NCBI GenBank assembly: GCA_051294905.1
Contig: CM119373.1
Location: 4,156,001 to 4,220,000, forward strand
Length of the DNA: 64,000 nucleotides
From: Botryllus schlosseri
Taxonomy: Eukaryota
Direction: 5' to 3'
Shown here: in pieces, positions 11,696 through 57,900 of the stretch
Numbering within the stretch: position 1 is the stretch's first letter
How the letters are laid out: every line of letters begins with the position of its first letter
The notes under the pieces: model-generated
Seen by the model: only the letters and a program-made list of their open reading frames with translations
Told to the model about the DNA's origin: nothing
Databases searched by the model: none
Position numbers and translations under genes: made by a program

Positions 11696-12032
11696 GGGCA
11701 ACCAGCAAATGGATGGTATGTGGCATGCATGTCCCAGATAGAAGCATAAATTTAAACAGTATTTATTTCCTATAGAGTCGCTGTATTTAGGTTTTTTCGA
11801 AGTTAGAAATTGAAACATTTTTCCGAAACCTGAACGAATTGCGTATTATGCGAAACCAGGAGAATGTGCTCCTACTGGAAGTAGTTTGGAGTCTTTCCGA
11901 AAAAAATCATGAATTGACTCATATTTCACGTCGCCACGTCTTATTCTACTTGCGGAACCTTATTGACTATTTTAGCAGCCTCTGGATATCACATCATCAG
12001 TCTTTGTTCGAAATACATTTGTGTCATTTCAG

Positions 12033-12681
12033 CATGCAACAATTCTGTCTTCATCTTTCCGAAGGAACATCACGAAGACTACGTTCTGTATAAACGTACT
12101 CTGTCGGGTATGGCGTCCTCCACCGTTTGTTTCTGGATAGGATCGGTAGATGGAATCAAGCCGGCAAAAGGATCAATTCTAAGTTACTGCACGCCGGGTG
12201 CGCCGGGTTTGTCCTGCAATACCATCGCAGCTTTTTTGAAGGGAACCAAAATCGAAGCGATTATAAATGGCAAACGCTGTACTTTGATATGACTCGAAGA
12301 ATTATTTATAGGACATACATATGTTTAGTCATGTCCAAGAATGCGGCAAGAATCTACATCAACGGTACCGAGATCGGAAACATACATGATATTCCAGCAG
12401 AAGTTGCTAAAGATGGGGTGCTCATATTTGGGCAAAATCAAGATGGTAAAATCAATGGTGATATTCCTGGGAAACCGGTAGATCCTCAACAGGGTTTTTA
12501 CGGCGAGATCGGTGGGATCCATATCTGGGATAGAGTTCTTAACGCAACTCAGATTAACCGTGCGACGAACGCCATACGGTGTGGCCCTGTAGATGATGCG
12601 TTCGTGATTATCAACCAATCGAATGCATGTGTGAAAGGTAATGTGATGACTGACTTTATAGAAACTTGCTTGAATGTGTAA
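12033..12681 (+). pseudogene. Pentraxin/LamG-like terminal exon with a 1-nt frameshift near 12278
   Basis: Acceptor TTTCAG at 12027-12032, phase 1, compatible with the EGF exon ending 7831. ORF 11963 (CNNSVFIFP...TVCFWI...SILSY) switches to ORF 12127 (YICL...IYING...GVLIFGQNQD...FYGEIGGIHIWDRVL), both pentraxin motifs. Aligns with the intact paralog at 47550. Confidence 0.8.
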
Positions 12682-22810: not shown

Positions 22811-22915
22811 AGTAGTGTAGGTACCTGGATTTCGTGCAGGCCAATCAAATTTCGCCACGTCGCCTTAATTGCCACGCCTACATTGCCACATCATCCGCCC
22901 ATTGCCGCACCTATA
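22811..22915 (+). repeat. Left terminal inverted repeat (TGCCACATCATC subrepeats continue to ~23030)
   Basis: Exact reverse complement of 38262-38366; imperfect for a further ~16 bp. Confidence 0.95.
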
Positions 22916-23284
22916 GGACACCCCTTGCCACATCATCCGCCCATTATCGCACCTATATGACGCCCATTGCCACATCATCTACGCCACATCATCAAGCGCC
23001 ACGCCTATAGTGCCACATCATCCATCCACAATATCATGATTATGCGTACTGAGCTGTTTTTGAGAATATGAATTCCCCTGTAATACACTAAACGTTGAAC
23101 TAGATTTCATAACGTCATCACAGAGGAATCAACCAACGATATTGATCTAGGTTTTAGGTTTGAAGCCTGTAGTCACCGCATTTCATACGATTCAGCGCTT
23201 TTCATGTCTCCTCACACTTTACTCAGTCTCATTGAAATAGCATTGCATAGTGTATCAGTTCATTTATTTCGAAAAAAGAGCATA

Positions 23285-23767
23285 TCAATGATATCGTTGA
23301 ACGTTATTGCGTCGATTCGCGTGCTGAAATCCTCCGGATCGGTCGATGTTTCGAGGTAGTCCGCTTTGATGCCATCCGACGCTGCGATCCGAGTTCTTGC
23401 GTTCGATCTGACCGTTTTGTTTGATGTAGCGATCACTGGCTTGTAGTATAAACGATACGAGCGGAAGGTCGGGATTAGGAACAACTACGCTGGGCGAATA
23501 GATGACGAATTCGTCAGCCGGATTCAGAGGTTGATAATGCTCGATCCCGTCGCGAGTATACGTAACGACCAAACCTCCTTCATGCTTCAGAGTGGCTCGA
23601 TATTTCTGAATGACCCCGCTTGTGGCATGTACAAAGAGTTGATCCGAGGTCAATTCTGCTCCATTCGAAGCTTCGATACGTAATTTTGTGATGTCATTAA
23701 AAAGATACAAGTCTTTTCTATAGGGCCCCTGGGCCAGAATAGTATCTCCACGGATTGCTAGACTCAT
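23285..23767 (-). CDS. Hypothetical Polinton cargo protein (~160 aa from MSLAIRGD...)
   Basis: ATG at 23767, 17 bp after the IAP stop; globular-looking composition; minus-strand AATAAA just downstream. No family recognised; the C-terminus may be frameshifted. Confidence 0.5.
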   Translation of the reverse strand: MSLAIRGDTILAQGPYRKDLYLFNDITKLRIEASNGAELTSDQLFVHATSGVIQKYRATLKHEGGLVVTYTRDGIEHYQPLNPADEFVIYSPSVVVPNPDLPLVSFILQASDRYIKQNGQIERKNSDRSVGWHQSGLPRNIDRSGGFQHANRRNNVQRYH

Positions 23768-23783
23768 TCTTTGAAAAGAAATA

Positions 23784-24365
23784 TCAAACATAAGTACAAC
23801 AGTCATCACGCAATTCCACCTCGCCATCAAATTTAGTCGAGCCTCTTCTTATATTAGGTGTCGCATAACAGACATTACGAATATATTGCAACCCCTTCCG
23901 CTTGATGAGAAAAGGACACGCAGGATAAAACTTTGCATGCTCGAGCCAGGGATCATCGCACGGCAACCAATTTTGAAACAACCCTCCGCATGAGAAACAC
24001 TTTAAATGATCCTTATAGCCCAAATAGAACAATCCGCAGTCTGCGAGCTCGGTTCCGGAGGTATTGATATTATCCGGCCACCGCATGAATGTGCTTAGTC
24101 TACGAGCATAGCGTGTCATGTTATAGAAAACGGGATCATTCAATGGGGAAACAGTTACATCTCTATGCTTCGCATAGCATTCACAAATCTTTTCCCCTCT
24201 GTTATTTATCATAGCTTGGTACTGTTCAATGGGACCCATCCGAGTTTCATCTTCGCCTATTCCTATGCTACTTGTGTTACCGATGCAAGCGCAGTTGAAT
24301 GTAGCGTAATTTGTAGGGTCCACACTACGCTTAGGTAGCGAATCGCTTTGATCAATGTTCGACAT
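23784..24365 (-). CDS. Inhibitor-of-apoptosis-like protein with a single BIR domain (193 aa)
   Basis: YARRLSTFMRWP...LADCGLFYLGYKDHLKCFSCGGLFQNWLPCDDPWLEHAKFYPACPFL is a full BIR with CX2CX16HX6C; no RING domain seen. Confidence 0.95.
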   Translation of the reverse strand: MSNIDQSDSLPKRSVDPTNYATFNCACIGNTSSIGIGEDETRMGPIEQYQAMINNRGEKICECYAKHRDVTVSPLNDPVFYNMTRYARRLSTFMRWPDNINTSGTELADCGLFYLGYKDHLKCFSCGGLFQNWLPCDDPWLEHAKFYPACPFLIKRKGLQYIRNVCYATPNIRRGSTKFDGEVELRDDCCTYV

Positions 24366-25939
24366 TGCTATCCGAATTGATATACTCTCATGATCAGTAT
24401 GCTTTATACCGATATTGAGCTATGCACCGTTGAAATATGTGCTTGGTACCGATCGAATGATAGGCCCCCTAGGTCGTATCACGGAAAATTAGAACGTCGA
24501 CTGCTCACAGAAAAAAGCCACGTAGCTCATATCCGTTCCTGGTACGTGTTATCAATAATTAGAATGTTAGTAAGAATGCCACGAGTACAATCACGCGGTG
24601 ATGATTAATACCTAAAAAATGACATCTTGACTCATGCATTAATTTAAAAAAATTAAACTATAGTGTATCGGAACTTAGTTTTACTTTACTGAGATTAGTT
24701 TTACTTTTCAACTAACTTGTCTGTCGATACATTCATTTAATTACGATCCCGAGAAGTCGGATCGATTCCCATAATATAACGATTCAGTGCCGACCTTATG
24801 TCTTATACTTTAGCTGACACTTACTCAGTCTCATTGAAATAGCATTGTATAGTGTACGAGCTCATTTATTTCGAAAAAGAGCATAATATATCAATGATAT
24901 CATTGTGCGTCATTGCATCGATTCACTTGCTGAAATCCTCCAGATTGATGTTTCGATGTCGCTTCACGAGTTCCATTCTTGTATTCATATATATCAACAA
25001 GCAGCTATGCAAATCCACAGCTTAGATAACTAGGGCTCTTGTATGTCATTAACATTATAGACAGCCCTTCGACGATATTCAACTGGCATTGATGCTTTCG
25101 ATACAGCGCAGTATGTATAACGTTACGCTGATCAATTCAATTTCAACAATGGGACCCCCGCACAATTATATGGTCGGATTTTCGTTGAATATTGACGACA
25201 CCCACAAATCGAAAGATCTCTTTTTCCTGCACATCTATGATGCAATTATCCTTCCAATGACTACGAATAACTTGAGATTCCGCAGGATTAATATCCGAAT
25301 CAAATAATACGAGCGTATCTTTTCCAGCTTTCAAAACTTACACTGACGCGTTCGGTCTATGTCGCAACACTACAATATGTGGCCATACAAAACGATGTAT
25401 AGTTATTTTTTGTAGTACCATCCCTACGACTTATTTCAGATCGCGGTTTACTGAGTAGAGCTTAATACTAATACCTGCATAATTTTTTGCATGTCTAGAA
25501 TAAGGGTAATTAAATCCATAGTAAAACGCCAGCGGCGACTAATAACGTTATAATGTAAGCTGCGACGGTGCTACTATAATGTTAGGAGCTATTAAAGCCG
25601 AATACGCTGAAGTATAGCATAGATTTTGCATATAAAATGTATACACAAATTTCCTGTTAAGGGTAGCCTCTGCGAAGCTGCTTATGCCTCGATGATCATA
25701 GTACTTATGAGCTATTGGATAGCGCATATACAATGTATCATATAGAACTTCGTCACTTTCGGATAGTACATATACCCCTGGGATAGAACTTAGACGCTAT
25801 AAAGATCGATGTTCGCCTACGAATTCTCGCTTTACTCATGTCGTATGCTCGATAAATTGTAAGTTGCGGCGAGCAACTCATTTTTAAAGTCCCTAAGACG
25901 CTATTGAAATGAACTCTGACTCGCTATTATCCTCAAACC

Positions 25940-26410
25940 ATGGAATTATCACGAGTATCACCTTCGCTCACTGAAGAAAAGGATGAAATTACATCCGGAG
26001 CATATTCCTTGGCGAGGAATTATATCATCTACGAACTCGACGACTCATGCGTTAAGGCAAATACGAAAGCAGAGAGAACCTTACGGCGAGTTGGGGATGA
26101 AATGTTTGAGCGACACCGAACTATCGTAAACGCGCTCTCTAAACGTCTTCGCTACTGTGATGTAGAAGTCGATGAAAAATATGAAGAATATTCACCCGAC
26201 GAGCGAATGTTCCTGATGATAGCTGATGGAATTTTCAAAGATACCCAAGAAAATTGGGGTAGGATTGTCTCTCTTTTTGTGGTCGCTAGCATTCTTGCTC
26301 GGAATAAGGAGGATGAACATCGCGGTGATCATATAGAAGGTATCATACAGACAGTTGGGAGTTACATTGGTAGTAGAAGACGAAAGTGGATAGCGCAAAA
26401 CGGAGGATGG
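25940..26410 (+). CDS. Bcl-2 family (Mcl-1/Bcl-2-like) protein, exon 1
   Basis: BH4-like SLARNYIIYEL, BH3 TLRRVGDE, BH1 ENWGRIVSLF, BH2 start WIAQNGGW followed immediately by the donor GTAAGC at 26411. Confidence 0.93.
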
Positions 26411-26655
26411 GTAAGCGATTTTACAAGCCTTACTAAGGATTTAGGAATTATTATCTATAGCTCGAGGTACTACGATCCCCAGAACCCTTATCATCCCTCG
26501 AACCTTAGATTCCACCTTATAATTTTGTTCTCAACTTTTCCCACAAAGCACTGTAATTTACTTTCCAAGCGCAGCGAACTTCGAATTACCTAACAAGTAG
26601 GCTACGCTAACTTTCTGTAAGATTTGGAAGGCTAACATTTTTATTATTGTTTCAG

Positions 26656-26775
26656 GACAGTTTTGTAGGATATTTCGATAACACAACATTCGGTAACAAT
26701 AAAGTTTGGAAGAGCCTCATGTTTGTTGGAATTGGACTGACGTCTATTGCAATGGCATTAACACGACAGCGATAA
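26656..26775 (+). CDS. Bcl-2 family protein, exon 2 (rest of BH2 plus C-terminal TM anchor); 196 aa spliced
   Basis: Branch point GCTAAC at 26631, T-rich tract, TTTCAG acceptor; translates DSFVGYFDNTTFGNNKVWKSLMFVGIGLTSIAMALTRQR*. Confidence 0.88.
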   Translation, partial: DSFVGYFDNTTFGNNKVWKSLMFVGIGLTSIAMALTRQR

Positions 26776-26993
26776 GTACAGCTCGAAAGGGCTTCAAAAA
26801 ACGCCCAACAAAACTTTCAAAGATTTCCATTCTTCAAAATAGATCGATCACGGGTGGCGTCAATAGTGGTTTTCGTTGCTATGGGAGCGATATGTTTACG
26901 TATAAGCAATATCGAAGTGCATTGAGTTATGGTTATTATAAAAGGATTGTGCTTGATGATGGAATTCATACATTGCCTTTATCTCTGTAATAA

Positions 26994-27611
26994 ATGGATC
27001 GAATACGTACATTGCATGCTCCGTTTCGGATGATCGTAGCTGGTCCGAGCAGTAGCGGGAAGAGTTATTTTACTTATGAGTTGGTGAAGAACGCAGAGAA
27101 GATGATTAGACCGGCTCCTGAAAAAATTGTATGGTTGTATAATAATTATCAGGCGTTATACGATAAAATGAAAGGGGTAGAATTTTCGCAAGGGCTCTCC
27201 GAGCTCAAAAAGTTACAGAAAGGAAATAGGCACGTTCTCTTGGTGATCGACGACATGATGACGGAAGCGAAAGAGGCCAGAGATCTATTCACTCGATACA
27301 GCCATCACGCAAAGATTAGTGTCGTGTTCATTTGTCAAAATTTATTCTATAGGGGCCAAGGCTTTCGGGATATGACCCTGAGCGCGAGCTATATCGTGAT
27401 ATTTAAAAATCCCCGTGATGCGAGTCAAATCAGTTTTCTTTCACGTCAAATGTTCCCGGATAAAGCCGGATTCCTTACGGAGGCTTATAAAAAGGCAACT
27501 CGAAAACCGTTCTCGTACATACTGGTCGACGTGACGCAAGAGACAGACGAAAATTATCGTCTTCGCAGCAAAATATTCCCACATCAAAAGTTGACGGTAT
27601 ATCAAGAATAA
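26994..27611 (+). CDS. Polinton DNA-packaging ATPase (A32/FtsK-like), 205 aa
   Basis: Walker A GPSSSGKS, Walker B LLVIDD, SHH...VVFICQNLF and FKNPRD motifs. Confidence 0.95.
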   Translation: MDRIRTLHAPFRMIVAGPSSSGKSYFTYELVKNAEKMIRPAPEKIVWLYNNYQALYDKMKGVEFSQGLSELKKLQKGNRHVLLVIDDMMTEAKEARDLFTRYSHHAKISVVFICQNLFYRGQGFRDMTLSASYIVIFKNPRDASQISFLSRQMFPDKAGFLTEAYKKATRKPFSYILVDVTQETDENYRLRSKIFPHQKLTVYQE

Positions 27612-27646
27612 ATACAGCTCGCGCTACAGATTTTAGGGCATTCAAC

Positions 27647-28055
27647 ATGTCGAAGAGGGGAAGTAACATATCTCGAAAACGATTGAGCGACTATCACGTT
27701 AAATTAAAACTTTTGAAAAACGCTAAAGGGAAACAGCGAAAAGAACTTTTATCGAACAATCAATTTTTAAGTTGCGTTTGCCAGTGCGTTCATAACTTGG
27801 CTTCGGGGACAGTACGTATCTCCCCGTCTAGAAAGTTGAGGCTTGGAAAACACAAATCCGATATCAGACAATTGCTGGCGCAAAAAACTCGCAGAGGTCA
27901 ACGGAGGGTGCTACAAAAGGGTGGATTCCTCTCAGGTATAAAAAATTATGATAAAATAGCAACTTTTTTCTAATCAGTCTCTTTTAGCTATATTAGGCGC
28001 TGCAATCCCCGTCATCGGGAGTCTGTTGGGTAAACTTTTCGGAAAGAATGCGTGA
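27647..28055 (+). CDS. Small basic Polinton core protein with a C-terminal amphipathic helix; predicted spliced (exons 27647-27935 and 27988-28055, 118 aa)
   Basis: KLKLLK...CVCQCVHNLASGTV...HKSDIRQL...QKGGFLS; removing GT..AG 27936-27987 gives QKGGFLSAILGAAIPVIGSLLGKLFGKNA*. Confidence 0.75.
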
Positions 28056-28386
28056 ACTACAATTCCCCGCATTTCGAAGCAAGGACGAATGGGAAAAGAA
28101 ATTTGATAAACATATATCGAAAATTAAAAGTTCTCCATTGAATGCTTCCGAGAAACTAGCTCTGTATAGGCATGGTATTGCTCAACTGAGAAACTTGAGA
28201 AAAGACGTAGACGCAGCGACCGCCCGCCCTCCCGCCGCACACACGGGGCTCGCGAGCCCCGTAGCGAAAGAAAAGCGCCCGCAAAAGAAACGCCCGCGCC
28301 GGATTCCACAACCTTCGTTTCCCTGGCTTTATAAGAGACAGCGTAAGCCTAATCCCCGTATATACGGGAAAGAATGGGAGACGTAG
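28048..28386 (+). CDS. Basic hypothetical Polinton protein (112 aa)
   Basis: Overlaps both neighbours in the compact gene array; K/R-rich C-terminus. Confidence 0.6.
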   Translation: MRELQFPAFRSKDEWEKKFDKHISKIKSSPLNASEKLALYRHGIAQLRNLRKDVDAATARPPAAHTGLASPVAKEKRPQKKRPRRIPQPSFPWLYKRQRKPNPRIYGKEWET

Positions 28387-29371
28387 ACTATTTTGATCCG
28401 AAACAGCCCAAATCGTATAGGGGCGCTTATTTGCAAAAGGAAAAAGAATGGCTTAAAGGACAAGATACTTATACTTTTCATTTTCCGTTACGTAAGAAAT
28501 TTAGGCGTGAACGTGTAGTGGTCTCCGGTATCAATGCTCAGTTTCAGAGCGATTTGATGGATCTGCAATCTATTTCAAAGTACAATAGCGGTTTTCGTTT
28601 TGTGGTGGTCGTGATTGATATTTTTAGCAAATACCTTTGGATGATAGCGATTAAAAATAAAACTGCTTCAAGTATGATTTCTGCTTTCAAACGTGTGTTT
28701 CGTGAACGCGTACCGTTAGTGTTACAAACCGATCAAGGTAGCGAATACACCAATCGCGCTTTCCAGAACTATCTAAAGGAGAACAAAGTTAGATATTTCT
28801 ATACGAGGAGCGAATTAAAATCCTCTGTCGTCGAAAGGGTGATTCGTACTATGAAGGCGTTATGTATCGATTTTTCACAAAAAATAACACGAGGAATTAC
28901 GTGAGCGCTCTCGATGACTTTACTTACTCCTACAACAGGACGTACCATCGTAGCATTGCCATGGCCCCAAACCAAGTGAATTCGTCTAATCAGGAATCGG
29001 TTTGGAGAAGACTTTACGGGTTTCAAGAAGCTAAACAACCCGACCTCGCTGTAGGAGTACCCGTCCGTATATCGAAAATTCGAAATCTTTTTGAGAAAAG
29101 CAGCCTACCCAACTGGCAACGGGAAATTTTCTATATCGCAGACGCCCAAAAGGGAGATCCCCCAATGTATCGCTTACGTGATTACGGTGGTGAAGTCATA
29201 CAGGGTAGATTTTATAGAGAGGAGCTCCAACGCGTAAAAGAACCGCAAACTTGGCGTGTCGAGAAGATTATAAGAAGGCGTAAACGCGCGGGACGAGAAC
29301 AGTATTTAGTGCGCTGGTTGGGATATGGAAGTGGATTCGACAGCTGGGTCGATAAGAAGGATATCGTCTAG
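28374..29371 (+). pseudogene. Retroviral-type (rve) integrase with C-terminal chromodomain, frameshifted at ~28860
   Basis: D-D-E motifs QSDLMD / LQTDQGSEY / SVVERVIRT in ORF 28374. MYRFFT...YNRTYHRSI and chromodomain WRVEKII...YLVRWLGYGSGFDSWV in ORF 28862. Only 2 nt (TT) separate GCG from ATG, i.e. one base is missing. Confidence 0.93.
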
Positions 29372-29534
29372 TCGGAACCTTTATCAGTTTTTGGCGCAAC
29401 TAGTAATCATACTGGTCATCGTATCGTTCTCTCTCTATAATCTTACCATTTCGAATGGGAACAAAGAGCTTTGGATATCACTGCTCTCCTCTTGCGTTGG
29501 TTATATGCTTCCGAATCCCAAGCTCAAAATATGA
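29325..29534 (+). CDS. Small two-helix membrane protein of Polintons (69 aa)
   Basis: Hydrophobic FLAQLVIILVIVSFSLYNL and LWISLLSSCVGYMLPNP, a pattern recalled from other Polintons; its stop overlaps the next ATG (ATGA). Confidence 0.65.
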   Translation: MEVDSTAGSIRRISSSRNLYQFLAQLVIILVIVSFSLYNLTISNGNKELWISLLSSCVGYMLPNPKLKI

Positions 29535-30340
29535 GCTACGTCACGCTATTTTCGAACGCTTCCATGGATAAATTTCCTGATAATACAACAGCGAGTTATT
29601 GCGTTGAACTGGACGTCCCGAAAAACGTGGAAGATACAGAAGTTTCTCTGGCTGAGATCTCCTTCCCTACGGATTATCAAAAACAGTATAGGATCACGAA
29701 GAATAGGTATGGGATCAGATCGCAAAAGAGAACAAGAAAATTTCATTTTAAATTGGGAGAATACGACTCGTTATATGACATGTATAGATCGTTGGAAAGA
29801 GACAATCCTGATGCAAAAGTAACATGTTTCCCTGAAAATCATAGTATGTCTATCTCTATACCTCATAACGAGGTAACCGACAAATTGCGACCAGAGACGG
29901 ACATAGGGCATAGTAGCTTGCTACGCCTCGGAGAATTGTACGGTGCTCTTATGTATAAGGAAACGAAGGAGGAGTTATTGGTGTTTCATTTCCCGAATAC
30001 TAATTGTACATTGTGGAATTATTTTTTCACCGAGGGTATCATTCATTTGAACTTTCGCATGCGACATGATCCGACTATCGATTTCGTTTATGTTCATTGT
30101 AATATCATTGAGCCACAAGAAGATAGCGGTAGGCTCTTACCGTTGTTACGCGTCGTACAGGTAAACGATCGTAAATCATTTTCGAAATATTACACGAAGC
30201 CTTTTTATTTCCCTGTTAATATAAATAGGCTAGAACGTGTCGAAATATCGCTACTTGATGAGAAGGGACAGAAAATACCCTTTCGAAGTTCTCCTTCGAG
30301 TGTTGTATTGCATTTTCGTAGACGGGGAGTTGCATTATGA
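29531..30340 (+). CDS. Minor capsid (penton/PX-like) protein 1, 269 aa
   Basis: YVTLFSNASMDKFPDNT..., VSLAEISFP, FVYVHCNIIEPQ..G..LPLLRVV, YFPV...IPF...VVLHFRR: Polinton single-jelly-roll motifs. Start taken at the ATG at 29531. Confidence 0.88.
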   Translation: MSYVTLFSNASMDKFPDNTTASYCVELDVPKNVEDTEVSLAEISFPTDYQKQYRITKNRYGIRSQKRTRKFHFKLGEYDSLYDMYRSLERDNPDAKVTCFPENHSMSISIPHNEVTDKLRPETDIGHSSLLRLGELYGALMYKETKEELLVFHFPNTNCTLWNYFFTEGIIHLNFRMRHDPTIDFVYVHCNIIEPQEDSGRLLPLLRVVQVNDRKSFSKYYTKPFYFPVNINRLERVEISLLDEKGQKIPFRSSPSSVVLHFRRRGVAL

Positions 30341-31059
30341 AATATATTCATATTACGTCACACGAGTCTGATTTTACTATCGATCTCGCGAAACCGATAG
30401 ATTCTGGTGAATGGGAGATAGGGCTTGCCGAGTTGTCTTTTAAAAATAATTTTCAGCCCACGTTCGAGCCTTACGACGGCTTATTATGGTACGTGAATGA
30501 TGCGGAAGGCGATAATAATTTTTATTATTTCCCGGCTGGTGATTATCATGATAAAATTAGTTTGATGAAGCGTATCAATCACGATCAGAAAAAAGCACGA
30601 TTTATTTGGGTAGATGGTTCTGGTCCGGTCTTGATAGCGGGACCCTACAAGAGTTCCAGCGGTCCGAGACTTTTCATGGATAATAGAAACCCCGTTCTCA
30701 GAGGAGGCGCTCGTTCGGAGGTAGAGCTAGATGGTGGATTACATAGACGAAGAAAAATTCACTTTCAAGGGGAACCTGTGTCCGTGACCAACGTTTTAGT
30801 TTATACGGATGTCATCACACCTCAAATTGTAGGTGATACGAGTGCGCCTCTACTACGCAATATCCGCGTTACGACAGGAATAGATGAATATCAGCATATG
30901 CTATTCAAAAAAATATATTTCTTTCCTCTGAATACGGAGCGAGTAAGCGAGATACGCGTTATGCTTCGTGATGATAAAGGCGAAGCTATAAAGTTTGGGA
31001 ACGCGCCTCTTCATCTCACACTTGCTTTGAGACATCATGAGGAGTCATTATTGCTGTGA
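30337..31059 (+). CDS. Minor capsid (penton/PX-like) protein 2, 240 aa
   Basis: FTIDLAKPI..GEWEIGLAEL, VLVYTDVITPQIVGDTSAPLLRNI, YFFPL...IRVMLRDDKGEAIKF; paralogous to the preceding ORF. Confidence 0.88.
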   Translation: MKYIHITSHESDFTIDLAKPIDSGEWEIGLAELSFKNNFQPTFEPYDGLLWYVNDAEGDNNFYYFPAGDYHDKISLMKRINHDQKKARFIWVDGSGPVLIAGPYKSSSGPRLFMDNRNPVLRGGARSEVELDGGLHRRRKIHFQGEPVSVTNVLVYTDVITPQIVGDTSAPLLRNIRVTTGIDEYQHMLFKKIYFFPLNTERVSEIRVMLRDDKGEAIKFGNAPLHLTLALRHHEESLLL

Positions 31060-31408
31060 TCGGGAGGCGTTCAGAAACTATTATCACCAACAGAGCGGTG
31101 GTGATATCAATTTTTTTCGGGGTAAAGTGCAGAGAGGTCATGGACTTGGAAACTTATTTCGTTCGTTCGGAAGAAGCGTTATGCCCCTAATTTCGAAAGG
31201 TGCAAAATCACTCGGGAAGCGTCTACTACATACCGGTGCGCAAGTAGCCTCTGATGTTCTTAATGGAGAGAATGTCGGTGATAGTCTTAAAATACGCGGC
31301 AAAGAAGCCGCTGGGAACGCTCTCGATTCTTTACTGAGAAAAAGAAAAATGCCAAGACGGGGTCGTAAAATCGCGAAAAAGAGACGTCGCAAAGATATTT
31401 TCGATTAA
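31037..31408 (+). CDS. Conserved Polinton core/membrane-active protein (cupiennin- or adenovirus pVI-like), 123 aa
   Basis: YYHQQSGG...QRGHGLGNLFRSFGRSVMPLISKGAKSLGK, an amphipathic helix after QxGxG motifs; basic C-terminal tail. Function is inference. Confidence 0.75.
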   Translation: MRSHYCCDREAFRNYYHQQSGGDINFFRGKVQRGHGLGNLFRSFGRSVMPLISKGAKSLGKRLLHTGAQVASDVLNGENVGDSLKIRGKEAAGNALDSLLRKRKMPRRGRKIAKKRRRKDIFD

Positions 31409-31457
31409 ATATATATTGCACGGCGATAAGCATCATTTGTTACTTGAGACTTGATAG

Positions 31458-32735
31458 ATGGCGGAGTTAATTCATGTACAGTCCCCGGAGGGGGTACATC
31501 CCTCATTGGATTTATTTCACATTCCCGCGACACAGACTAGCGTTGAAAAGAAAAGAATCATCAAGATAGCGCCGATTTCGAACAACTCTAGTGTGATAAC
31601 ATTCCGCTTTGAAGGCTCAGAAGACTTTAACGATTTGAGCGAGAGCTATTTCTTATTTCATTTACAATTAAAGAAAGATGGCGAAGCAATCGGACCCGAC
31701 GATGATGTTGGAGTTGTAAATAATATCTTGGATTCCTTGATTTCTCAACTACAAATTAAAGTCGCTAACGAAACTTTGAAACAAGATATAAAAGTACAGT
31801 GTTATTCGTCCTATCTGCACAATTTATTCGCTCCGCTTGACGTGCAAAGTACCACACTGAGGGCCTCAGGATGGAGAAAAGATACTTTAGGAGAAATGAA
31901 TACGATTGGTGGAACTAACGCCTCGGCTAACAAAGGATATTACAACAGGAGTAAAGCCTATAAGGATGATAACGTGGTGGAAATACGTGCAAAAATCCAT
32001 CACGGACTATGTCTGCAAGACCGCTACATCCTACATGACGTGCCTCTCGAGTTTGAGCTTACCTTGAATCCGAAAAGCTTTTTCATGATGGGAGATGCTG
32101 GCGGTCAATTCACCTTAACGAAAAAGGAATTACAGTTATGTAGCGTACGAGTCAGCGACGATGTGAAGACAGCGATGATGGTGAATGCCCAGGCGAAATA
32201 TCCGTATATCGACATGAAATTGATCACCCGAACATTTGCGGCTGCTACGACGCAGATAGATATCGGGAATCTATATAGCGGGACTCTACCTTCTCGCCTA
32301 ATCATCGGAATGGTAGCTACGAAAGCCTTTCAAGGAGATGTTACGAAAAATCCTTATAATTTCATACACAATAATATGCAACGACTCGAACTGAAACTGA
32401 ACGGATTTCTGATTCCGGAGGGAGGTTATGAGCTAGATTTCGATAAGGGTCATTACACGGAGCTTTACCATAACCGGATTGAGGGTACGGGTGCAATGGA
32501 GAGAAACACAGGACTCCTAACACCTGAAGAGTTCGCTAGTGGTTTCTGTCTACTGGTTTATAATTTGCGCCCTGATGATTTGGATGATTGCTTTGACTTA
32601 CAAAAGAGTGGTGCCTTAAGTTTACGGATCACATTTCCTGCTGGCGGGCTAACAGCGGAAACTACTTTGCTCTGTTTCATGGAATTCCAGAAGCTATTGC
32701 AAATCAGTAGCAGTCGTAAAGTGACCGTGCTATGA
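31458..32735 (+). CDS. Major capsid protein (double jelly-roll, PY/hexon-like), 425 aa
   Basis: LIH..S.E.....LDLFHIPATQTSVE N-terminus; VNNILDSLISQL; LPSRLIIGMV...AFQGD..KNPYNF; typical size and position before the protease. Confidence 0.92.
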   Translation: MAELIHVQSPEGVHPSLDLFHIPATQTSVEKKRIIKIAPISNNSSVITFRFEGSEDFNDLSESYFLFHLQLKKDGEAIGPDDDVGVVNNILDSLISQLQIKVANETLKQDIKVQCYSSYLHNLFAPLDVQSTTLRASGWRKDTLGEMNTIGGTNASANKGYYNRSKAYKDDNVVEIRAKIHHGLCLQDRYILHDVPLEFELTLNPKSFFMMGDAGGQFTLTKKELQLCSVRVSDDVKTAMMVNAQAKYPYIDMKLITRTFAAATTQIDIGNLYSGTLPSRLIIGMVATKAFQGDVTKNPYNFIHNNMQRLELKLNGFLIPEGGYELDFDKGHYTELYHNRIEGTGAMERNTGLLTPEEFASGFCLLVYNLRPDDLDDCFDLQKSGALSLRITFPAGGLTAETTLLCFMEFQKLLQISSSRKVTVL

Positions 32736-33187
32736 ACGGGGATGAAATAGACCAAATATTGTGGTGCTGCGAGTCAACAAAACATATTTTCCTTGGCACA
32801 TTTCCTATCGATCGACTGCCGAGGCGACCCCCTCCTCCTTATGCTATCGTGATCAATTATGACGAAGCTCGAAAAATCGGAAGTCACTGGATATGCATTT
32901 ACGCGGATGAGGATGAGACACATTTTCACGATAGTTTTGGCTTAATGCCACTGAAATACGAGATTGCCTGCTTTATAGAACCAGAAAATTATACCTGCTC
33001 TATAAAGCGTCTGCAGCACAAACGTTCCAGAGCTTGCGGTCATCATTGTCTAAGCTTTATCGTCCATAAGGCGCGCGGATGGAGTACGGAACGTTATTTA
33101 AATTCCTTCGGTGAAGATCATCGCAAGAATGATTCGATCGTGCGACGCTTCGTCAAGGAGCTGAAGCAAGAATATGAAATTGTGTAA
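32732..33187 (+). CDS. Adenain-like cysteine (maturation) protease, 151 aa
   Basis: IVINYD...GSHW (His), HDSFG (Asp), LQ...ACGHHC (Gln, Cys); AATAAA at ~33199. Confidence 0.93.
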   Translation: MNGDEIDQILWCCESTKHIFLGTFPIDRLPRRPPPPYAIVINYDEARKIGSHWICIYADEDETHFHDSFGLMPLKYEIACFIEPENYTCSIKRLQHKRSRACGHHCLSFIVHKARGWSTERYLNSFGEDHRKNDSIVRRFVKELKQEYEIV

Positions 33188-33574
33188 ATGTATATGCGAA
33201 TAAAATCAATAGTTTCAAAGTTTGCTTAGTACGTTTAAGGGCGATATTCGCTACGTTCATTATAGCAATCATCTCAAAGTAGTAGACTCTAAATCAGCAG
33301 TAGCGACTTGCTTTCGGTTAGGTGATAGTGGCTACATATTACCATTATCTAGCAAGAACCAGGAATTTGTATTGAGTGACTTCGCTCCTACAGTAAACGC
33401 AGCTTACATTACGGCGGTACTGAACATCGAGTAATAAGTGGGACTATGCAGGCTACCCTTAATACGAATTTGCATTTTGCTGGTACAATCTATGCTATAG
33501 TTGAGCGACTTTGATACGACCTCGGCACACTTCTTTGATATAGCTGCGCAAAGATGTAGCCTTGAACGCTGGCT

Positions 33575-36500
33575 TGCCTTGTCATTATATGCTTGTAACT
33601 AGTTCCAGGCTTGCGGTGCTAGTCTTCTTGGCTGCATGAAATAGGATGTTTCAGCTTAAAACTCAACGCATTAGCATGCCGAATTTGTAACCATGGCGAG
33701 ATTCGAGTATTAAGCGAGGCTAGATAGTCTACCCTTGACAGAGAACTTGCATATACATTCGAATTTATGCGACTTCGGCTATATTGCCGGTTAACATTAT
33801 AGCCGTGCACAGAACTCATTATTACGTTATTAGGTATTTAAATGATGCGATATAGGGGAAATCTCGGTGTAATTCAATCTGCGCGCATTATCCATGTATG
33901 CTCCAATGCGTTTTGCGGCTTTAGTATAGGTATTGGATCTAATATATTCTATAAAACATGTACGTTGCTATATATTTATCTTAATCCGAAGTGCATTGCT
34001 GCATCGAAAAATTATAGCTATATGCGGTACGCTGTCGATTTTTCAATATTAGTCAAGAAATGAAATAGCCCACCTTCAGTGTTGCGTAATCTGCCTTGTC
34101 ATTATATGCTTGTAACTAGTTCCAGGCTTGCGGTGCTAGTCTTCTTGGCTGTGTGAAATAGGATGTTTCAGCTTAAAACTCAACGCATTAGCATGCCTAA
34201 TTTATAACCACAGCGAGATTCGAGTAATAACCGAGCCTAGATAGTCTACCTTTAACAGAAAACTTGCATATACATTCGAATTTATGCGACTTCGGCTATA
34301 TTGTCGGTTAACATTATAGCCGTGCACAGAACTCATTATTACGTTATTAGGTATTTAAATGATGCGATATAGGGGAAATCTCGGTGTAATTCAATCTGCG
34401 CGCATTATCCATGTATGCTCCAATGCGTTTTGCGGCTTTAGTATAGGTATTGGATCTAATATATTCTATAAAACATGTACGTTGCTATATATTTATCTTA
34501 ATCCGAAGTGCATTGCTGCATCGAAAAAATTATAGCTATATGCGGTACGCTGTCGATTTTTCAATATTAGTCAAGAAATGAAATAGCCCACCTTCAGTGT
34601 TGCGTAATCTGCCTTGTCACTATATGCTTGTTCCGGGCTTGCTTGCGGTACTAGTCTTCTTGGCTGCGTGAAATAGGATGTTTCAGCTTAAAACTCAACG
34701 CATTAGCATGCCTAATTTATAACCACAGCGAGATTCGAGTAATAACCGAGCCTAGATAGTCTACCTTTAACAGAAAACTTGCATATACATTGGAATTTGT
34801 GCGACTTCGGCTATATTGTCGGTTAACATTATAGCCGTGCACAGAACTCATTATTACGTTATTAGGTATTTAAATGATGCGATATAGGGGAAATCTCGCT
34901 GTAATTCAATCTGTGCTCATTATCCATGTATGCTCCAATGCGTTTTGCGGCTTTAGTATAGGTATTGGATCTAATATATTCTATAAAACATCTACGTTGC
35001 TATATATTATATATCTTAATCCTAAGTGCATTGCTGCATTGAAAAATTATAGCTATATGCGGTACGCTGTCGATTTTTCAGTATACTCAAGAAATGAAAT
35101 AGCTCATCTTCAGTGTTGCGTAATCTGCCTTGTCACTATATGCTTGTTCCGGGCTTGCTTGCGGTACTAGTCTTCTTGGCTGCGCGAAATAGGATGTTTC
35201 AGCTTAAAACTCAACGCATTAGCATGCCTAATTTATAACCACAGCGAGATTCGAGTAATAACCGAGCCTAGATAGTCTACCTTTAACAGAAAACTTGCAT
35301 ATACATTCGAATTTGTGCGACTTCGGCTATATTGTCGGTTAACATTATAGCCGTGCACAGAACTCATTATTACGTTATTAGGTATTTAAATGATGCGGTA
35401 TAGGGGAAATCTCGCTGTAATTCAATCTGTGCGCATTATCCATGTATGCTCCAATGCGTTTTGCGGCTTTAGTATAGGTATTGGATCTAATATATTCTAT
35501 AAAACATGTACGTTGCTATATATTTATCTTAATCCGAAGTGCATTGCTGCATCGAAAAATTATAGCTATATGCGGTACGCTGTCGATTTTTCAATATTAG
35601 TCAAGAAATGAAATAGCCCACCTTCAGTGTTTCGTAATCTGCCTTGTCATTATATGCTTGTTCCGGCCTTGCTTGCGGTGCTAGTCTTCTTGGCTGCGTG
35701 AAATAGGATGTTTCAGCTTAAAACTCAACGCATTAGCATGCCTAATTTATAACCACAGCGAGATTCGAGTAATAACCGAGCCTAGATAGTCTACCTTTAA
35801 CAGAAAACTTGCATATACATTCGAATTTGTGCGACTTCGGCTATATTGTCGGTTAACATTATAGCCGTGCACAGAACTCATTATTACGTTATTAGCTATT
35901 TAAATGATGCGATATAGGGGAAATCTCGCTGTAATTCAATCTGTGCGCATTATCCATGTATGCTCCAATGCGTTTTGCGGCTTTAGTATAGGTATTGGAT
36001 CTAATATATTCTATAAAACATCTACGTTGCTATATATTATATATCTTAATCCTAAGTGCATTGCTGCATTGAAAAATTATAGCTATATGCGGTACGCTGT
36101 CGATTTTTCAGTATACTCAAGAAATGAAATAGCCCACCTTCAGTGTTGCGTAATCTGCCTTGTCACTATATGCTTGTTCCGGGCTTGCTTGCGGTACTAG
36201 TCTTCTTGGCTGCGCGAAATAGGATGTTTCAGCTTAAAACTCAACGCATTAGAATGCCTAATTTATAACCACAGCGAGATTCGAGTAATAACCGAGCCTA
36301 GATAGTCTACCTTTAACAGAAAACTTGCATATACATTCGAATTTGTGCGACTTCGGCTATATTGTCGGTTAACATTATAGCCGTGCACAGAACTCATTAT
36401 TACGTTATTAGGTATTTAAATGATGCGGTATAGGGGAAATCTCGCTGTAATTCAATCTGTGCGCATTATCCATGTATGCTCCAATGCGTTTTGCGGCTTT

Positions 36501-37436
36501 AGTATAGGTATTGGATCTAATATATTCTATAAAACATGTACGTTGCTATATATTTATCTTAATCCGAAGTGCATTGCTGCATCGAAAAATTATAGCTATA
36601 TGCGGTTCGCTGTCGATTTTTCAATATTAGTCAAGAAATGAAATAGCCCACCTTCAGTGTTGCGTAATCTGCCTTGTCATTATATGCTTGTTCCGGCCTT
36701 GCTTGCGGTGCTAGTCTTCTTGGCTGCGTGAAATAGGATGTTTCAGCTTAAAACTCAACGCATTAGCATGCCTAATTTATAACCACAGCGAGATTCGAGT
36801 AATAACCGAGCCTAGATAGTCTACCTTTAACAGAAAACTTGCATATACATTCGAATTTGTGCGACTTCGGCTATATTGTCGGTTAACATTATAGCCGTGC
36901 ACAGAACTCATTATTACGTTATTAGCTATTTAAATGATGCGATATAGGGGAAATCTCGGTGTAATTCAATCTGCGCCCATTATCCATGTATGCTCCAATG
37001 CGTTTGCGGCTTTAGTATAGGTATTGGATCTAATATATTCTATAAAACATCTACGTTGCTATATATTATATATCTTAATCCGAAGTGCATTGCTGCATTG
37101 AAAAATTATAGCTATATGCGGTACGCTGTCGATTTTTCAGTATAGTCAAGAAATGAAATAGCCCACCTTCAGTGTTGCGTAATCTGCTTTGTCACTATAT
37201 GCTTGTTCCGGGCTTGCTTGCGGTACTAGTCTTCTTGGCTGCGTGAAATAGGATGTTTCAGCTTAAAACTCAACGCATTAGCATGCCTAATTTATAACCA
37301 CAGCGAGATTCGAGTAATAACCGAGCCTAGATAGTCTACCTTTAACAGAAAACTTGCATATACATTCGAATTTGTGCGACTTCGGCTATATTGCCGGTTA
37401 ACATTATAGCCACGCACAGAACTCATTATTACGTTA
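33575..37436. repeat. Tandem array of ~515-bp units (~7.5 copies) inside the Polinton
   Basis: Anchor ATGATGCG recurs at 33842, 34359, 34874, 35390, 35904, 36420 and 36934; near-identical units in two alternating variants. Confidence 0.97.
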
Positions 37437-38261
37437 GCTATTGGAGAAATCTCAACGTAAATCAATCTGCGTTCACAATTCGCGTAAGCTAATGCTGCAT
37501 CGAGAAATTATAGCTACATTTAGTTTAAATTGGCACGAAAATACATTGATCTTACCTTATGCCTGCGATGCCTGCATCCCTGCGCACATGGCAATACTTG
37601 TAATAGAAATGTGAAGTTTTCAGAATGCGAATTGCTTTACGTCGGAACTAAACATTCTAATTCGTAACGCCAGCGCGGCGTTTTCTTGGAAACGCAACTT
37701 TATTTAGAATGTTCTAATTCACTTTGTCGATGTGGCGCAACTTTTTTGGAATCGTAAGCAACTGTATTCGTGGCACATTTACACGCGTCAATTTCTTGGA
37801 ATAGTATTCAGCAATATGCGCGTGAGCTTTCGCGTCATTGTAGACATTTATGGTGGCGATATCTGCATTATCAAGTTGCATTCGCAGAATTCCTCAAAAT
37901 CATTGACTAATTAATGATGACACAGGTGTTATAAGTGCACACGAACATAGTCTTACATTTATGTGTTATTACTCGAAAAAGGTGTTGTCTCGGAATTTAA
38001 GAGAGAATCGGCGGTTATATTCTCAAAACAGCTCAATACGGCTAGTTTGCTCAATAGCCTGGTGGTGAGCGATGTGAAATTATACCCAACCAAACCAGGT
38101 TCGATTCTAGCTTAGGTAAGTTTTGACGTGGCAATGAGTGACATAGGTGTAGCAATCGACATCGCGCGGGTTGATGATGTGCAGCGTATAGATGCGGCAA
38201 TCAATGCGGTGATGATGTGGCAATGGATGATGTGGCACTATAGACGTGGCAATGGGTGTGG

Positions 38262-38366
38262 TATAGGTGCGGCAATGGGCGGATGATGTGGCAATGTAGG
38301 CGTGGCAATTAAGGCGACGTGGCGAAATTTGATTGGCCTGCACGAAATCCAGGTACCTACACTACT
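38262..38366 (-). repeat. Right terminal inverted repeat
   Basis: Reverse complement of 22811-22915; followed by the TSD GACGTG. Confidence 0.95.
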
Positions 38367-47390: not shown

Positions 47391-47549
47391 ATTGACCAAA
47401 AAAACGGGTGCATTATCATATGTATGATTTGAGTGAGTGTCATGACATCCGCGGAATCCACGAGACTGGCTCTTGGAACCCCTAGTGTTCCATGGAACGC
47501 CGGTCCAGAACCACCGCTTTAAAGGTCAACGACACTCTTGTGTTTTCAG

Positions 47550-48190
47550 AGTGTAACAATTCCATCTTCAAATTTCCGAATGAAAACCATTTGGATTACG
47601 TCCAGTACAGCGGCACGCTACAGAGTATGGCGTCGTTTTCCACGTGTTTCTGGATAAGTTCAGTGAACGAAAGCAAACCGGCCAAGGGCTCAATTATAAG
47701 TTACTGTGCATTCGGTTCAGCATATTGTAATACGTTCGGAATAGAAGTGTATGGAAACGAACTGAGGTACTGGAATGAGAAGACGTTGAACTGGGATGCG
47801 TATCCCATGCGTCGCATGATTACTTATCAGACACATATCTGTCTACTCGTAAAACATTCTGCATTGCAAATCTACATCAACGCTACCATGATCGACGGCA
47901 GACTCGGAGCTGCATCACCAATACCAGGTGGTGGCGTGCTGATTTTCGGGCAGAATCAAGATCACGATTACGTTGGTGTTCGGCCTGGTAAACCGGATCA
48001 TTTTGACCAAGGTTTCTACGGTATAATGGAAGGTTTACGTATCTGGAATAAAGCTCTCAGTGCATCTGAAATACATCGTATGTATAGGTGCGATGGAAGC
48101 AGTTGTGAGGATGACGCAATCGTGATTGTTAACCAATCGAACACATGCTTGCAAGGTCAGGTGATTGCAAACTGCAGTGTACCTTGTTAG
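47550..48190 (+). CDS. Intact pentraxin/LamG-like terminal exon (paralog of 12033-12681)
   Basis: TTTTCAG acceptor, phase 1; CNNSIFKFP...FSTCFWI...THICL...IYINA...GGVLIFGQNQD...FYGIMEGLRIWNKAL. Confidence 0.88.
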
Positions 48191-50824: not shown

Positions 50825-51938
50825 GGTATGACATGGCATGGAATGGGGAATTTCCATACTCCCAACCCGCCCAAATCGTTCCATATCATACTTCACGATT
50901 TTCCATATCTTAGCAACATTCTCCCATTCTATATTTGATACTTTTTCCATACTTTCGAAACTTTCCCAACCTCTCAAGCGATATTCTATTTCTGATGCAT
51001 GGAAATGTTCCGGCGTTAATATTATAATTAATTAGGATGAAATGATCCATTTAAACAGCCGTGATGCGCCATCTCCAGTTATTTTGTATCATATGTGGTC
51101 AGCGATGCAGGTTGTCTTATCACGGAGGACAGAACGTAAATTATAGATAGCATACACAATGGATTATTTGAAAATCGCAACAGAATCTCATGAAATGTAG
51201 GTCTAGTGTAGTAACATTTTTCTAGCAGTAGCATCATCTACATAATACATAAAACAAAGGTATTTTAAAGTTAGAAGAGTTGCTCCCAATCTTTTTTTCT
51301 TCATTCACCACAGCCTGAAATCTTTATTTCTAACCTATAAAATTGCTCCCCCATTAAAATTTTGGAAGAAGTAGCTTTGTCAAGACTTGCTATTGGCGAC
51401 AGTTAAGACCCTCATACTTGAACAGCAAGTAATACAATTAATGAGCACGGAACTACTAACCAACCGTTCATGCAGTGTTGCGCCCCCGTAAAATGTATTA
51501 ATTAAGCCGACAGAAAATAGGAAGGACTTTAAATGTTTTGAAATGCAGCGAGGTAGCATCAGTTTACATGGTTAAATGCCGAATATTATCTTATTGTAAC
51601 GAACCAGGAGATACTCAATCACACCATTTCGCACACAAATGAATAGTAACCTATATTCGAAAGATCGAGCACCGCTGTCCAGTCGATTCTCCCAAATGGA
51701 GATTCTGATAATACGTAATGGTGAATTGCAAATGAGCTGAGAAATATTAGAGATGCCATTGGCATTTCATAAAGACATTTAATAGATGAGGTTAGCAATA
51801 TGAAGAATTTATTTTTGAATGTGTCTATTCCCAACCAGAAACCCCTAAATTCCCCAGCGGTGGAAACCACTGCATTGGAATGTATCTTAGCATATAATTT
51901 CACATCGTTACAATCATTTTGCGACATCGGATCTCATG

Positions 51939-52105
51939 AGTAGTGAGGTTTGGTCAAATATACGCAGACCAATCCCAGAAGGCCACGTCGCCTTAATTGC
52001 CACGCCTACATTGCCACATCATCCGCCCATTGCCGCACCTATAGCACGCCTATTGCCACATCATCCACCCATTGCTATATCATCGCTGCATTGATTTCCG
52101 CATCT
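51939..52105 (+). mobile_element. Terminus (TIR) of a second Polinton-related element; the other end is not in the window
   Basis: Starts AGTAGTG; 51982-52043 is identical to 22854-22915, at the same +43 offset from the terminus. Confidence 0.85.
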
Positions 52106-54976: not shown

Positions 54977-57900
54977 TCAGTTTTAAATAAAATACGGAAT
55001 ATAAACTAATCGAAAAATTCGGTAACCAATTTCGCGTAGGCTATGCATGCATACAAATGAGGAAAGTTACATCAACGCGTGTTAAAGTAGCTGTATCGAG
55101 TTATCGAATGATTTTCTCCTTACATCAAAACAACTAGAATGTATAACTAAATTAAAAAACGTATCTAAATGAGCTCCAGGGCATTGTGATTATGCTGCAT
55201 ACCAAATTTCATCACACATTTCATGATGGAACAACTTTAAAACTAACGCAGTTCTATAGCAACTTTTGCCTAAATCTGTTTTCGGTAGCGTGTACATATA
55301 CATAGTCAGATTTAATAACAGAATTATCATGCTAATATGTGACTCCTCACCTTGAAACTTGGTACGTAGTTGTAGGACATTGTGATTATGCAGCATACCA
55401 AATTTCCTCACGCATTTCATAATGGAACAACTTTAAAACTAACGCGGTTCTACATCGACTTTTTGCGTACATCTGTTTTGCGTGGGGGGCGTATAGCACG
55501 TACCTATACATAGTCAACTTTAACAACGGAATTACCATGCTTAACATTGAATCCCAACTCGAAACTTGATACGTAGTTGTAGGACATTATGGTAATGCAC
55601 CATGCTAAATTTCATCACACATCTAATGATGGAACACCTTTAAAACTAACGCAGTCGAATACCGACTTTTACGCATATCTGTTTTGCGTGAACATAGCAT
55701 ATACCTATACATAGTCAATTTTAATAGCAGAATTACCGTGTTAAACATTGAATTCCCACCTTGAAAGTGGGTACGCGGTTATAGGAGATTATAACAATGC
55801 ACCATACCAAATCCCATCACACATTTCATGATGGAACAACTTTAAAACTAACGCGGCTCTACATCGACTTTTTGCGTACATCTGTTTTGTGGGAGCGTAT
55901 AGCACGTAGCCTACCCATACATAGCCAACTTTAATAACGGAATTACCATGCTTAACATTGAATCCCAACTCGAAACTTGATACGTAGTTATAGAACATTA
56001 TGGCAATTCACCATGCTAAATTTCATCACACATCTAATGATGGAACACCTTTGAAACTATCGCAGTCGAATACCAACTTTTACGCATATCTGTTTTCCGT
56101 GAACATAGCATATACCCATACATAGTCAATTTTAATAACAGAATTAGCATGCTAAACATTAAATTCTCACCTTGAACGTTGAAACGCGGTTGTGGGACAT
56201 AATAACAATGCACCATACCAAATTTCGTCAGACATTTCATGATGTAACACCTTTAAAACCAACGCAGTTCTATACAGACTTTTGGCTAAATCTGTTTTTC
56301 CGTAGCGTAGCACGTACCTATACATAGTCAACTTTAATAACGGATTTAGCATGTTAATAATCGACTTAGTTTTAAATAAAATACGGAATATAAACTAATC
56401 GAAAAATTCGGTAACCAATTTCGCGTAGGCTATGCATGCATACAAATGAGGAAAGTTACATCAACGCGTGTTAAAGTAGCTGTATCGAGTTATCGAATGA
56501 TTTTCTCCTTACATCAAAACAACTAGAATGTATAACTAAATTAAAAAACGTATCTAAATGAGCTCCAGGGCATTGTGATTATGCTGCATGCCAAATTTCA
56601 TCACACATTTCATGATGGAACAACTTTAAAACTAACGCAGTTCTATAGCAACTTTTGCCTAAATCTGTTTTCGGTAGCGTGTACATATACATAGTCAGAT
56701 TTAATAACAGAATTATCATGCTAATATGTGACTCCTCACCTTGAAACTTGGTACGTAGTTGTAGGACATTGTGATTATGCAGCATACCAAATTTCTTCAC
56801 GCATTTCATAATGGAACAACTTTAAAACTAACGCGGTTCTACATCGACTTTTTGCGTACATCTGTTTTGCGTGGGGGCGTATAGCACGTACCTATACATA
56901 GTCAACTTTAACAACGGAATTACCATGCTTAACATTGAATCCCAACTCGAAACTTGATACGTAGTTGTAGGACATTCTGGCAATGCACCATGCTAAATTT
57001 CATCACACATCTAATGATGGAACACCTTTAAAACTAACGCAGTCGAATACCGACTTTTACGCATATCTGTTTTGCGTGAACATAGCATATACCTATACAT
57101 AGTCAATTTTAATAGCAGAATTACCGTGTTAAACATTGAATTCCCACCTTGAAAGTTGGTACGCGGTTATAGGAGATTATAACAATGCACCATACCAAAT
57201 CCCATCACACATTTCATGATGGAACAACTTTATAACTAACGCGGCTCTACATCGACTTTTTGCGTACATCTGTTTTGTGGGAGCGTATAGCACGTAGCCT
57301 ACCCATACATAACCATCTTTAATAACGGAATTACCATGCTTAACATTGAATCCCAACTCGATACTTGATACGTAGTTATAGGACATTATGGCAATTCACC
57401 ATGCTAAATTTCATCACACATCTAATGATGGAACACCTTTGAAACTATCGCAGTCGAATACCAACTTTTACGCATATCTGTTTTTCGTGAACATAGCATA
57501 TACCCATACATAGTCAATTTTAATAACAGAATTAGCATGCTAAACATTAAATTCTCACCTTGAACGTTGATACGTGGTTGTAGGACATAATAACAATGCA
57601 CCATACCAAATTTCATCAGACATTTCATGATGTAACACCTTTAAAACCAACGCAGTTCTATACAGACTTTTGGCTAAATCTGTTTTTCCGTAGCGTAGCA
57701 CGTACCTATACATAGTCAACTTTAATAACGGATTTAGCATGTTAATAATCGACTCCCCACCTTGAAACTCGGTACGCAGTTGTAAGACATTATGACAATG
57801 CACCATGTCAAATTTTGTTACGCATTTCATGATTGAACAACTTTAAAACTAACGCAGTTCCATACCGACTTTTGCGAGTGCGTAGCACGTACCTATAAGC

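Follow-up and report, generated by a model that had tools for sequence, protein, structure and literature searches.

Polinton/Maverick elements are recognised by inverted ends, (AGT)2//(ACT)2 termini and target duplications of 6 bp, and in vertebrates their core genes have been described and searched for as intronless (PMC8097293). In a nematode study the Maverick core genes are likewise given as intronless, with introns in cargo only (bioRxiv 10.1101/2022.07.12.499685), and viral genes have been assumed to be intron-free (PMC9356565). Dinoflagellate eupolintoviruses contain introners (PMC12166617) and cryptophyte PLVs contain group I introns (PMC12220804), and the accessible parts of PMC10748475, bioRxiv 10.1101/2024.03.25.586562 and bioRxiv 10.1101/2025.02.07.637071 report no intron of the kind considered here. 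Across the literature covered, mostly articles outside subscription journals and without their supplements, we found no report of an intron in the GasderminX gene family or of antisense Polinton RNA. Mirusviruses are reportedly intron-rich according to one study. The locus described here resembles the known Polinton-type cases in having introns inside integrated DNA, and the intron of its Bcl-2 cargo gene fits the nematode cargo pattern; it differs from them in that the candidate is a single spliceosomal intron, the element is an animal one and the gene affected belongs to the core virion module. This candidate has no repeated copy in the 64-kb stretch of DNA analysed (the window), and it seems to be common to divergent families.

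The two described proteins most relevant to the affected gene are GasderminX of adintoviruses and protein X (mu) of adenoviruses. GasderminX has a protein-X-like part near its end, and its membrane activity is a speculation at the level of HHpred matches (PMC8502044). Adenovirus protein X is the precursor of a DNA-condensing core protein and is cut at (M/L)xGG sites (PMC7998265); a mu-core-like gene has been reported in entomopoxvirus-associated PLVs (PMC11296320). The likeness of the window gene to GasderminX lies in a small basic protein encoded after the ATPase gene, with a protein-X-like C-terminal part, and in the presence of a cupiennin-like partner gene in the same virion module (PMC8502044), and its likeness to the protein X precursor lies in a basic, presumably DNA-binding part, a predicted xGG cut site and a conserved C-terminal part (PMC7998265). 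It differs from GasderminX in being split by a GT-AG candidate intron, and from adenovirus protein X in having a longer helical N-terminal domain and one motif, in which Gln replaces Met/Leu. We know of no intron in the coding region of adenovirus protein X itself.

The element and its genes were placed in the window as follows.

22811..38366, no strand assigned: Polinton/Maverick-type insertion of 15,556 bp, with (AGT)2//(ACT)2 ends and terminal inverted repeats of ~129 nt, flanked on each side by a target duplication of 6 bp
25940..26775, plus strand: Bcl-2 cargo gene; its GT-AG intron of 245 nt (26411-26655) lies right after the GGW motif
26994..27611, plus strand: A32-like packaging ATPase (PF04665, E 8e-9)
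27607..27646, plus strand: AATAAA overlapping the stop of the ATPase gene; an acceptor-like TTTTAG follows, 10 nt ahead of the next start codon, as a candidate trans-splice site
27647..27935, plus strand: exon 1 of the small core gene (predicted GasderminX family), 96 codons + 1 nt, 289 nt
27936..27987, plus strand: candidate phase-1 GT-AG intron, 52 nt in the window and 51 nt in most sibling contigs
27988..28055, plus strand: exon 2, 68 nt, with a predicted protein-X-like hydrophobic tail and the stop codon
28048..28386, plus strand: 112-aa ORF, occupying the position that follows the target gene in related loci
28374..29371, plus strand: rve integrase that includes a chromodomain; its reading frame is split in two in the window copy
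29531..32735, plus strand: two conserved ORFs, a 123-aa basic ORF and the double-jelly-roll major capsid gene, all open without introns
32732..33187, plus strand: presumed adenain-like cysteine protease, with His, Asp and Gln/Cys motifs present

The terminal inverted repeats, the (AGT)2//(ACT)2 ends and the 6-bp duplication are those of a Polinton/Maverick, and the gene content agrees (ATPase, rve integrase, capsid and protease). The capsid and protease labels are the weaker ones: the major capsid gene has a weak Pfam match (E 0.02), and the ORF at 32732-33187, which we take to belong to the adenain-like family, has no Pfam match. The ORFs at 29531-31059 are presumably minor-capsid-like, going by position and recall; they stand as two in tandem, not one. 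QxGG and QxGxG motifs occur in the 123-aa basic ORF at 31037. For protein-primed DNA polymerase B, the window contains no ORF of >425 aa and gave no match by tblastn with 3 PolB-like queries, and the copy is without the PolB gene of an autonomous Polinton/Maverick. A 7.4-copy array of ~515-bp units (dimer 1030 bp) lies at 33609-37436, where the polymerase gene might be expected; despite the array, the element size of 15.6 kb is within the normal Maverick range. Contigs of all three sequencing runs compared (X2, X3 and X17) differ from the window at the integrase break, which is therefore either found in this copy alone or due to faulty assembly. Because its integrase is broken and its polymerase gene absent, the window copy may be inactive.

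Several further observations concern the neighbours of the target gene. No spliced leader was found among the 18 of 107 loose contig ends that were listed. When the ORF at 28048 was compared with a profile of next-gene ORFs, it scored 8.4 bits, whereas the best of its 200 shuffles reached 9.9, so that assignment to the pz family was not supported by the profile score. The Bcl-2 intron was found spliced in one X3 contig, which has a single mismatch next to the joint. The window sequence is left near 25906 by X2 and X17 contigs, and near 26763 by those of X2, so the Bcl-2 cassette seems to lie in other contexts in other copies. On the minus strand, a single-BIR (IAP-like) ORF (23784-24365) overlaps a 180-aa ORF of no known family (23285-23827), of whose 3' end a decayed partial duplicate (83%) was found at 24814-24959; with the BIR and Bcl-2 genes, the element has two anti-apoptosis-type genes.

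Unspliced, the ORF of the target gene runs from 27647 to 27973 (108 aa) and leaves a 74-nt gap to the next start. Its end is as given in an earlier, sequence-only reading of this DNA, which had also proposed that a 52-nt segment of the form GTATAA...CTAAT...TTTTAG is a hidden intron, and the splice signals were confirmed at 27936-27987. GTATAA follows directly after an exonic CAG, a branch-point-like CTAAT lies ~13-17 nt upstream of the acceptor at 27987, and a pyrimidine tract and TAG are found at the 3' end. The segment thereby combines the GT donor, branch point, pyrimidine tract and AG acceptor of a U2 spliceosomal intron, with a donor that is weak past +3, and it has stop codons in all 3 frames. 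Its AT content is 0.79, as compared to 0.574 +/- 0.075 for all 52-nt stretches between 26994 and 33187; it is the highest-AT 52-mer in this 6.2-kb gene block, and the top 11 stretches all overlap it. When a loose branch-point and pyrimidine filter was applied to the gene block, 3 donor/acceptor pairs were retained, each of which ends at 27987. The 289 nt of exon 1 and 68 nt of exon 2 add up to a multiple of three with a phase-1 junction, and removal of the segment preserves the frame and collinearity with intronless homologues (one X at the break). As sources of the segment, a tandem duplication and a repeated introner found no support within the 64-kb window, which has no second copy.

The two exons differ in the kind of protein they encode. 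Exon 1 is rich in Lys+Arg (26%, with 3% Asp+Glu) and ends just past a QxGG-F motif, and exon 2 encodes 21 mostly hydrophobic residues. The predicted exon 2 helix has a mean KD of 2.08, which is as hydrophobic as in the family, and a best hydrophobic moment of 0.51 that is typical of the family (0.44 +/- 0.10) and was matched by 340 of 5000 shuffles. What had been called a clean amphipathic helix is therefore more safely called a hydrophobic helix; its hydrophobicity stands and its clean amphipathicity does not. Exon 2 by itself has no Pfam match. It was rejected as a separate gene, because the internal ATG in its frame meets a stop two codons on. The stop of the spliced gene (28053-28055) overlaps the next ATG (28048) by 8 nt, and 6 of the 8 other gene junctions in the block also overlap, in line with the suggestion that the spliced gene would end in the manner of its neighbours.

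To score splice pairs against the gene family, we used a profile of 111 positions that was built without the two closest relatives, with one X placed at the break. The pair 27935/27988 scored highest of 73 donor/acceptor pairs (106.8 bits; profile positions 3-110 of 111), the runner-up reached 95.0 bits, and the unspliced ORF reached 84.8 bits with a match ending at profile position 91. Alternative donors (27908, 27921) and acceptors (27959, 27977, 27996), among others, gave lower profile scores. A phmmer search with the unspliced protein returned 349 matches among 1.84 billion representatives; all 150 of the matches listed stop at query residue 99 or earlier, and the unspliced tail is therefore not homologous. 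No relative was found among 12 candidates from a word-index protein search with the unspliced ORF. The profile end was reached by 247 of 263 homologous proteins, and the other 16 end early.

At the DNA level, we compared 80 metagenome loci that were selected via the ATPase and not via the target gene, and are for that reason free of bias for the latter. The target gene has an unbroken tail in 60 of them; the other 20 run into a contig end (9), break farther upstream (6) or have no match (5), and none of the 80 breaks at the column of 27936. One residue type occupies the break column in 56 of the 60 unbroken loci, and its codon family agrees with the bases on either side of the segment. The next ORF was found in 48 of these 60 loci, where it overlaps the gene stop in 39 cases and starts within 14 nt of it in all 48. 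The alignment with homologues proposed in the sequence-only reading thus makes the 52 nt an insertion relative to the family. Searches with the ATPase query gave no confirmed relative among viral contigs and 6 distant ATPase loci (37-48% identity) among prokaryote genome contigs.

The closest relative, P0034 (53% identity; best of the 349 matches), ends in Gly-Lys-stop three letters past the same motif and in the same column as the break in the window. Such an end is a possible outcome of a phase-1 GT donor at this site, and is compatible with a stronger donor than that of the window; P0034 is the only one of the 16 early-ending proteins that stops at the break column with a residue of this kind. 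A tree was built from 51 N-terminal parts; its columns are few and its bootstrap had not settled. In this tree P0034 is sister to the window gene (98/82) over a path of 1.01 changes per site, and P0035, which is unbroken as a protein, branches next (95/89). Going by these three residues of the P0034 protein, an intron common to the window lineage and P0034 is likely, and the gain looks old because the sister stops at the same column. An intron gain in a viral gene, as had been proposed, is supported by the insertion relative to homologues together with the spliceosomal signals.

To place the protein by structure, a model of the homologue P0035 (45% identity to the window protein) was used, which is all helical (pLDDT 88.8) with its last helix at 97-118. 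Foldseek of this model against viral proteins matched GasderminX of Terrapene adintovirus (E 1e-5, TM 0.68/0.73), the sole match below 0.001. Of 117 family members, 24 matched Pfam Adeno_PX (PF05829) at E <= 0.05, the lowest value being 1.6e-4, and 97 of the 117 have Gln two positions ahead of GG. These sequence and model matches place the gene in the adintovirus GasderminX family, with a putative protein-X-like tail, and what the sequence-only reading had taken for a core viral structural gene is accordingly a conserved gene of the Polinton virion module. By position and size alone, it would correspond to pm of vertebrate Mavericks. Solved structures gave no clear match, whether by sequence (best E 0.26), by Foldseek (best E 0.19) or by VIA-align (best Z 6.4, rmsd 5.0), and no cellular gasdermin was among the listed sequence, Pfam, Foldseek and VIA-align matches. 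The Atlas returned only unnamed clusters at 0.91-0.92, with low recognition.

Contigs of the three runs were compared over 23100-33300, taking X2 as DNA and X3 as RNA (both by guess) and X17 as RNA-like. Joints were listed at a threshold of 5 in 100 from contigs that are strandless and drop rare forms. None of the 14 joints listed from X2, X3 and X17 contigs is 27935/27988, at an X3 depth of 212.6 at 27940 and with other splices visible in X3; the X17 contig ends at 27925 and does not cover the segment. This missing joint is weak but real evidence against the intron, weak because of the threshold, the loss of rare forms from strandless contigs and an antisense intron that covers the gene. An assembly artefact was rejected as the source of the segment, inside which X2 and X3 contigs align. 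The A-run at 27940 is one base shorter in X2 (348 of 348 depth) and in X3 (161.8 of 212.6), so most copies have a segment of 51 nt; the length of 52 nt given earlier holds for the window copy but not for most sibling copies, and the sixth base of the run in the window may be private or an error. Sibling contigs thus vary in this interior A-run; for substitutions, the comparison covered the best 40 of 321 entries. The 51-nt form is a multiple of three and is still closed by an in-frame TAG within the segment, so the tail is unreachable by plain reading.

The antisense intron belongs to a transcript of the opposite strand.

26890..33200, minus strand: spliced antisense RNA over the structural block, with exons at >=32995 (at least), 32063-32113, 29447-29576 and <=27117 (at most)

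Three GT-AG introns on the minus strand separate these exons. The joint 32111/32993 was found in X3 and X17, which come from two studies, and the joints 29575/32062 and 27116/29446 in X17 only; none of them was found in the DNA run X2. Joint depth in X17 was 28-59, above that of most sense-gene bins, and the three joints probably lie on one molecule. The last antisense intron (27118-29446) spans the whole target gene. The first antisense donor, CAG/GTATAA (X3 and X17), has the same nine bases as the donor of the candidate intron, which shows that this donor is one the host is able to use. The 130-nt exon of the antisense RNA has two stops in each of its frames; a protein gene was rejected for that reason, and the RNA is likely non-coding. 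Several joints whose ends are non-canonical were attributed to diverged copies and not considered further.

Across these results, the segment 27936-27987 is very probably a real intron, whether ordinary or regulated. Our main reading, to which we assign a probability of about 0.65, is that of an ordinary spliceosomal intron that was probably acquired a single time, in an ancestor of the present Polinton lineage, and whose removal yields a 118-residue predicted virion-core precursor. The host spliceosome would remove the segment to give this protein, predicted to be like adenovirus protein X, whenever a sense transcript is made, and the simplest reading of the runs would be that the sampled tissues held mostly antisense or unprocessed RNA. 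By analogy, the Lys/Arg-rich part from exon 1 would bind and condense the packaged DNA, and the cysteine protease of the element would cut after QxGG in particle maturation, as in adenovirus protein X. The hydrophobic helix from exon 2 would then be released or anchored inside the capsid, and it may act on membranes at entry. Unspliced RNA would meet a stop within 12 codons and lead to a tail-less product or to degradation.

Regulation of the same intron, the splice switch put forward as a possibility in the sequence-only reading, is an unlikely alternative, by which the intron would be mostly retained and removed late in a particle-forming cycle, integrated copies would be without the tail, and the spliced antisense RNA may help to hold the tail off. 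The intron lies three codons past the predicted cut site, between the basic part and the hydrophobic tail, has a weak donor, is the sole intron found in the sense structural block and was likely kept over ~1 change per site, all of which would suit a switch, as would the spliced antisense RNA that spans the gene and the dominance of the unspliced form in X3 while other splices are visible there. However, the spliced form was seen in no condition, the antisense RNA is spliced at an identical weak donor, relatives are mostly without the intron, and the end of P0034 fits a stronger donor. In X3 most of the Bcl-2 RNA likewise keeps its intron (spliced form 5.36 versus ~85 in the bin), so low splicing is not special to the target gene. 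It is more doubtful again that a retained intron between a DNA-binding part and a membrane-active tail, kept over ~1 change per site and paired with a multi-exon antisense non-coding RNA over all of the structural block, makes up a latency-to-late switch in the style of adenoviruses or herpesviruses that sets the time at which an integrated Polinton forms mature particles.

We regard as improbable a disabling insertion, in which an AT-rich stretch whose ends resemble splice sites by coincidence would have entered the gene in a lineage already dead. It would agree with the lack of a spliced contig, with a window copy that has no polymerase gene and a split integrase, and with the large insertions in decayed Mavericks that are mis-called as introns (PMC8097293). 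However, the segment is present across sibling copies in the DNA run X2, with no insertion-free form listed, whereas the integrase break differs from the window in contigs of all three runs. Exon 2 fits the family profile to its end, and no combination of donor, branch point and acceptor other than the one present would preserve frame, column and gene overlap; the break in P0034 is at the same column, and no similar sequence lies elsewhere in the window. Recoding without splicing, by which 51-nt copies would be read through a single in-frame stop to place 17 extra residues before the tail, can barely be entertained: the length found in most copies is divisible by three and has a single stop in the exon 2 frame, but the idea does not work for 52-nt copies (the window and perhaps some of the X3 depth), such an insert occurs in no relative examined, and the branch point, the acceptor and the P0034 stop two residues past the motif are left unexplained.

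If the ordinary-intron reading is right, an old intron in a virion-core gene means that the lineage needs nuclear splicing for its particles, and ORF-based screens would label the gene truncated and the element defective. A read across 27935/27988 would arise solely from sense late-gene expression and would be a marker proof against DNA; this specificity would therefore make it a simple assay of when and where the particle-forming phase occurs, a phase given as not observed for vertebrate Mavericks in PMC8097293. The spliced antisense RNA, which was directly observed, is a second lead, on the silencing of structural genes.

Outside the element, the window contains a second, diverged Polinton-type end at 51937-52073, which starts with AGTAGT and shares 89% with the first end across 110 nt. 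At 57866-61165 lies an inverted repeat of 1628 nt, perfect and with 44 nt between its arms, within arrays of ~200-bp units (54979-64000). Laminin-G/pentraxin-like host ORFs lie at 12015-12681 and 47492-48190, and are 70% alike over 175 nt.
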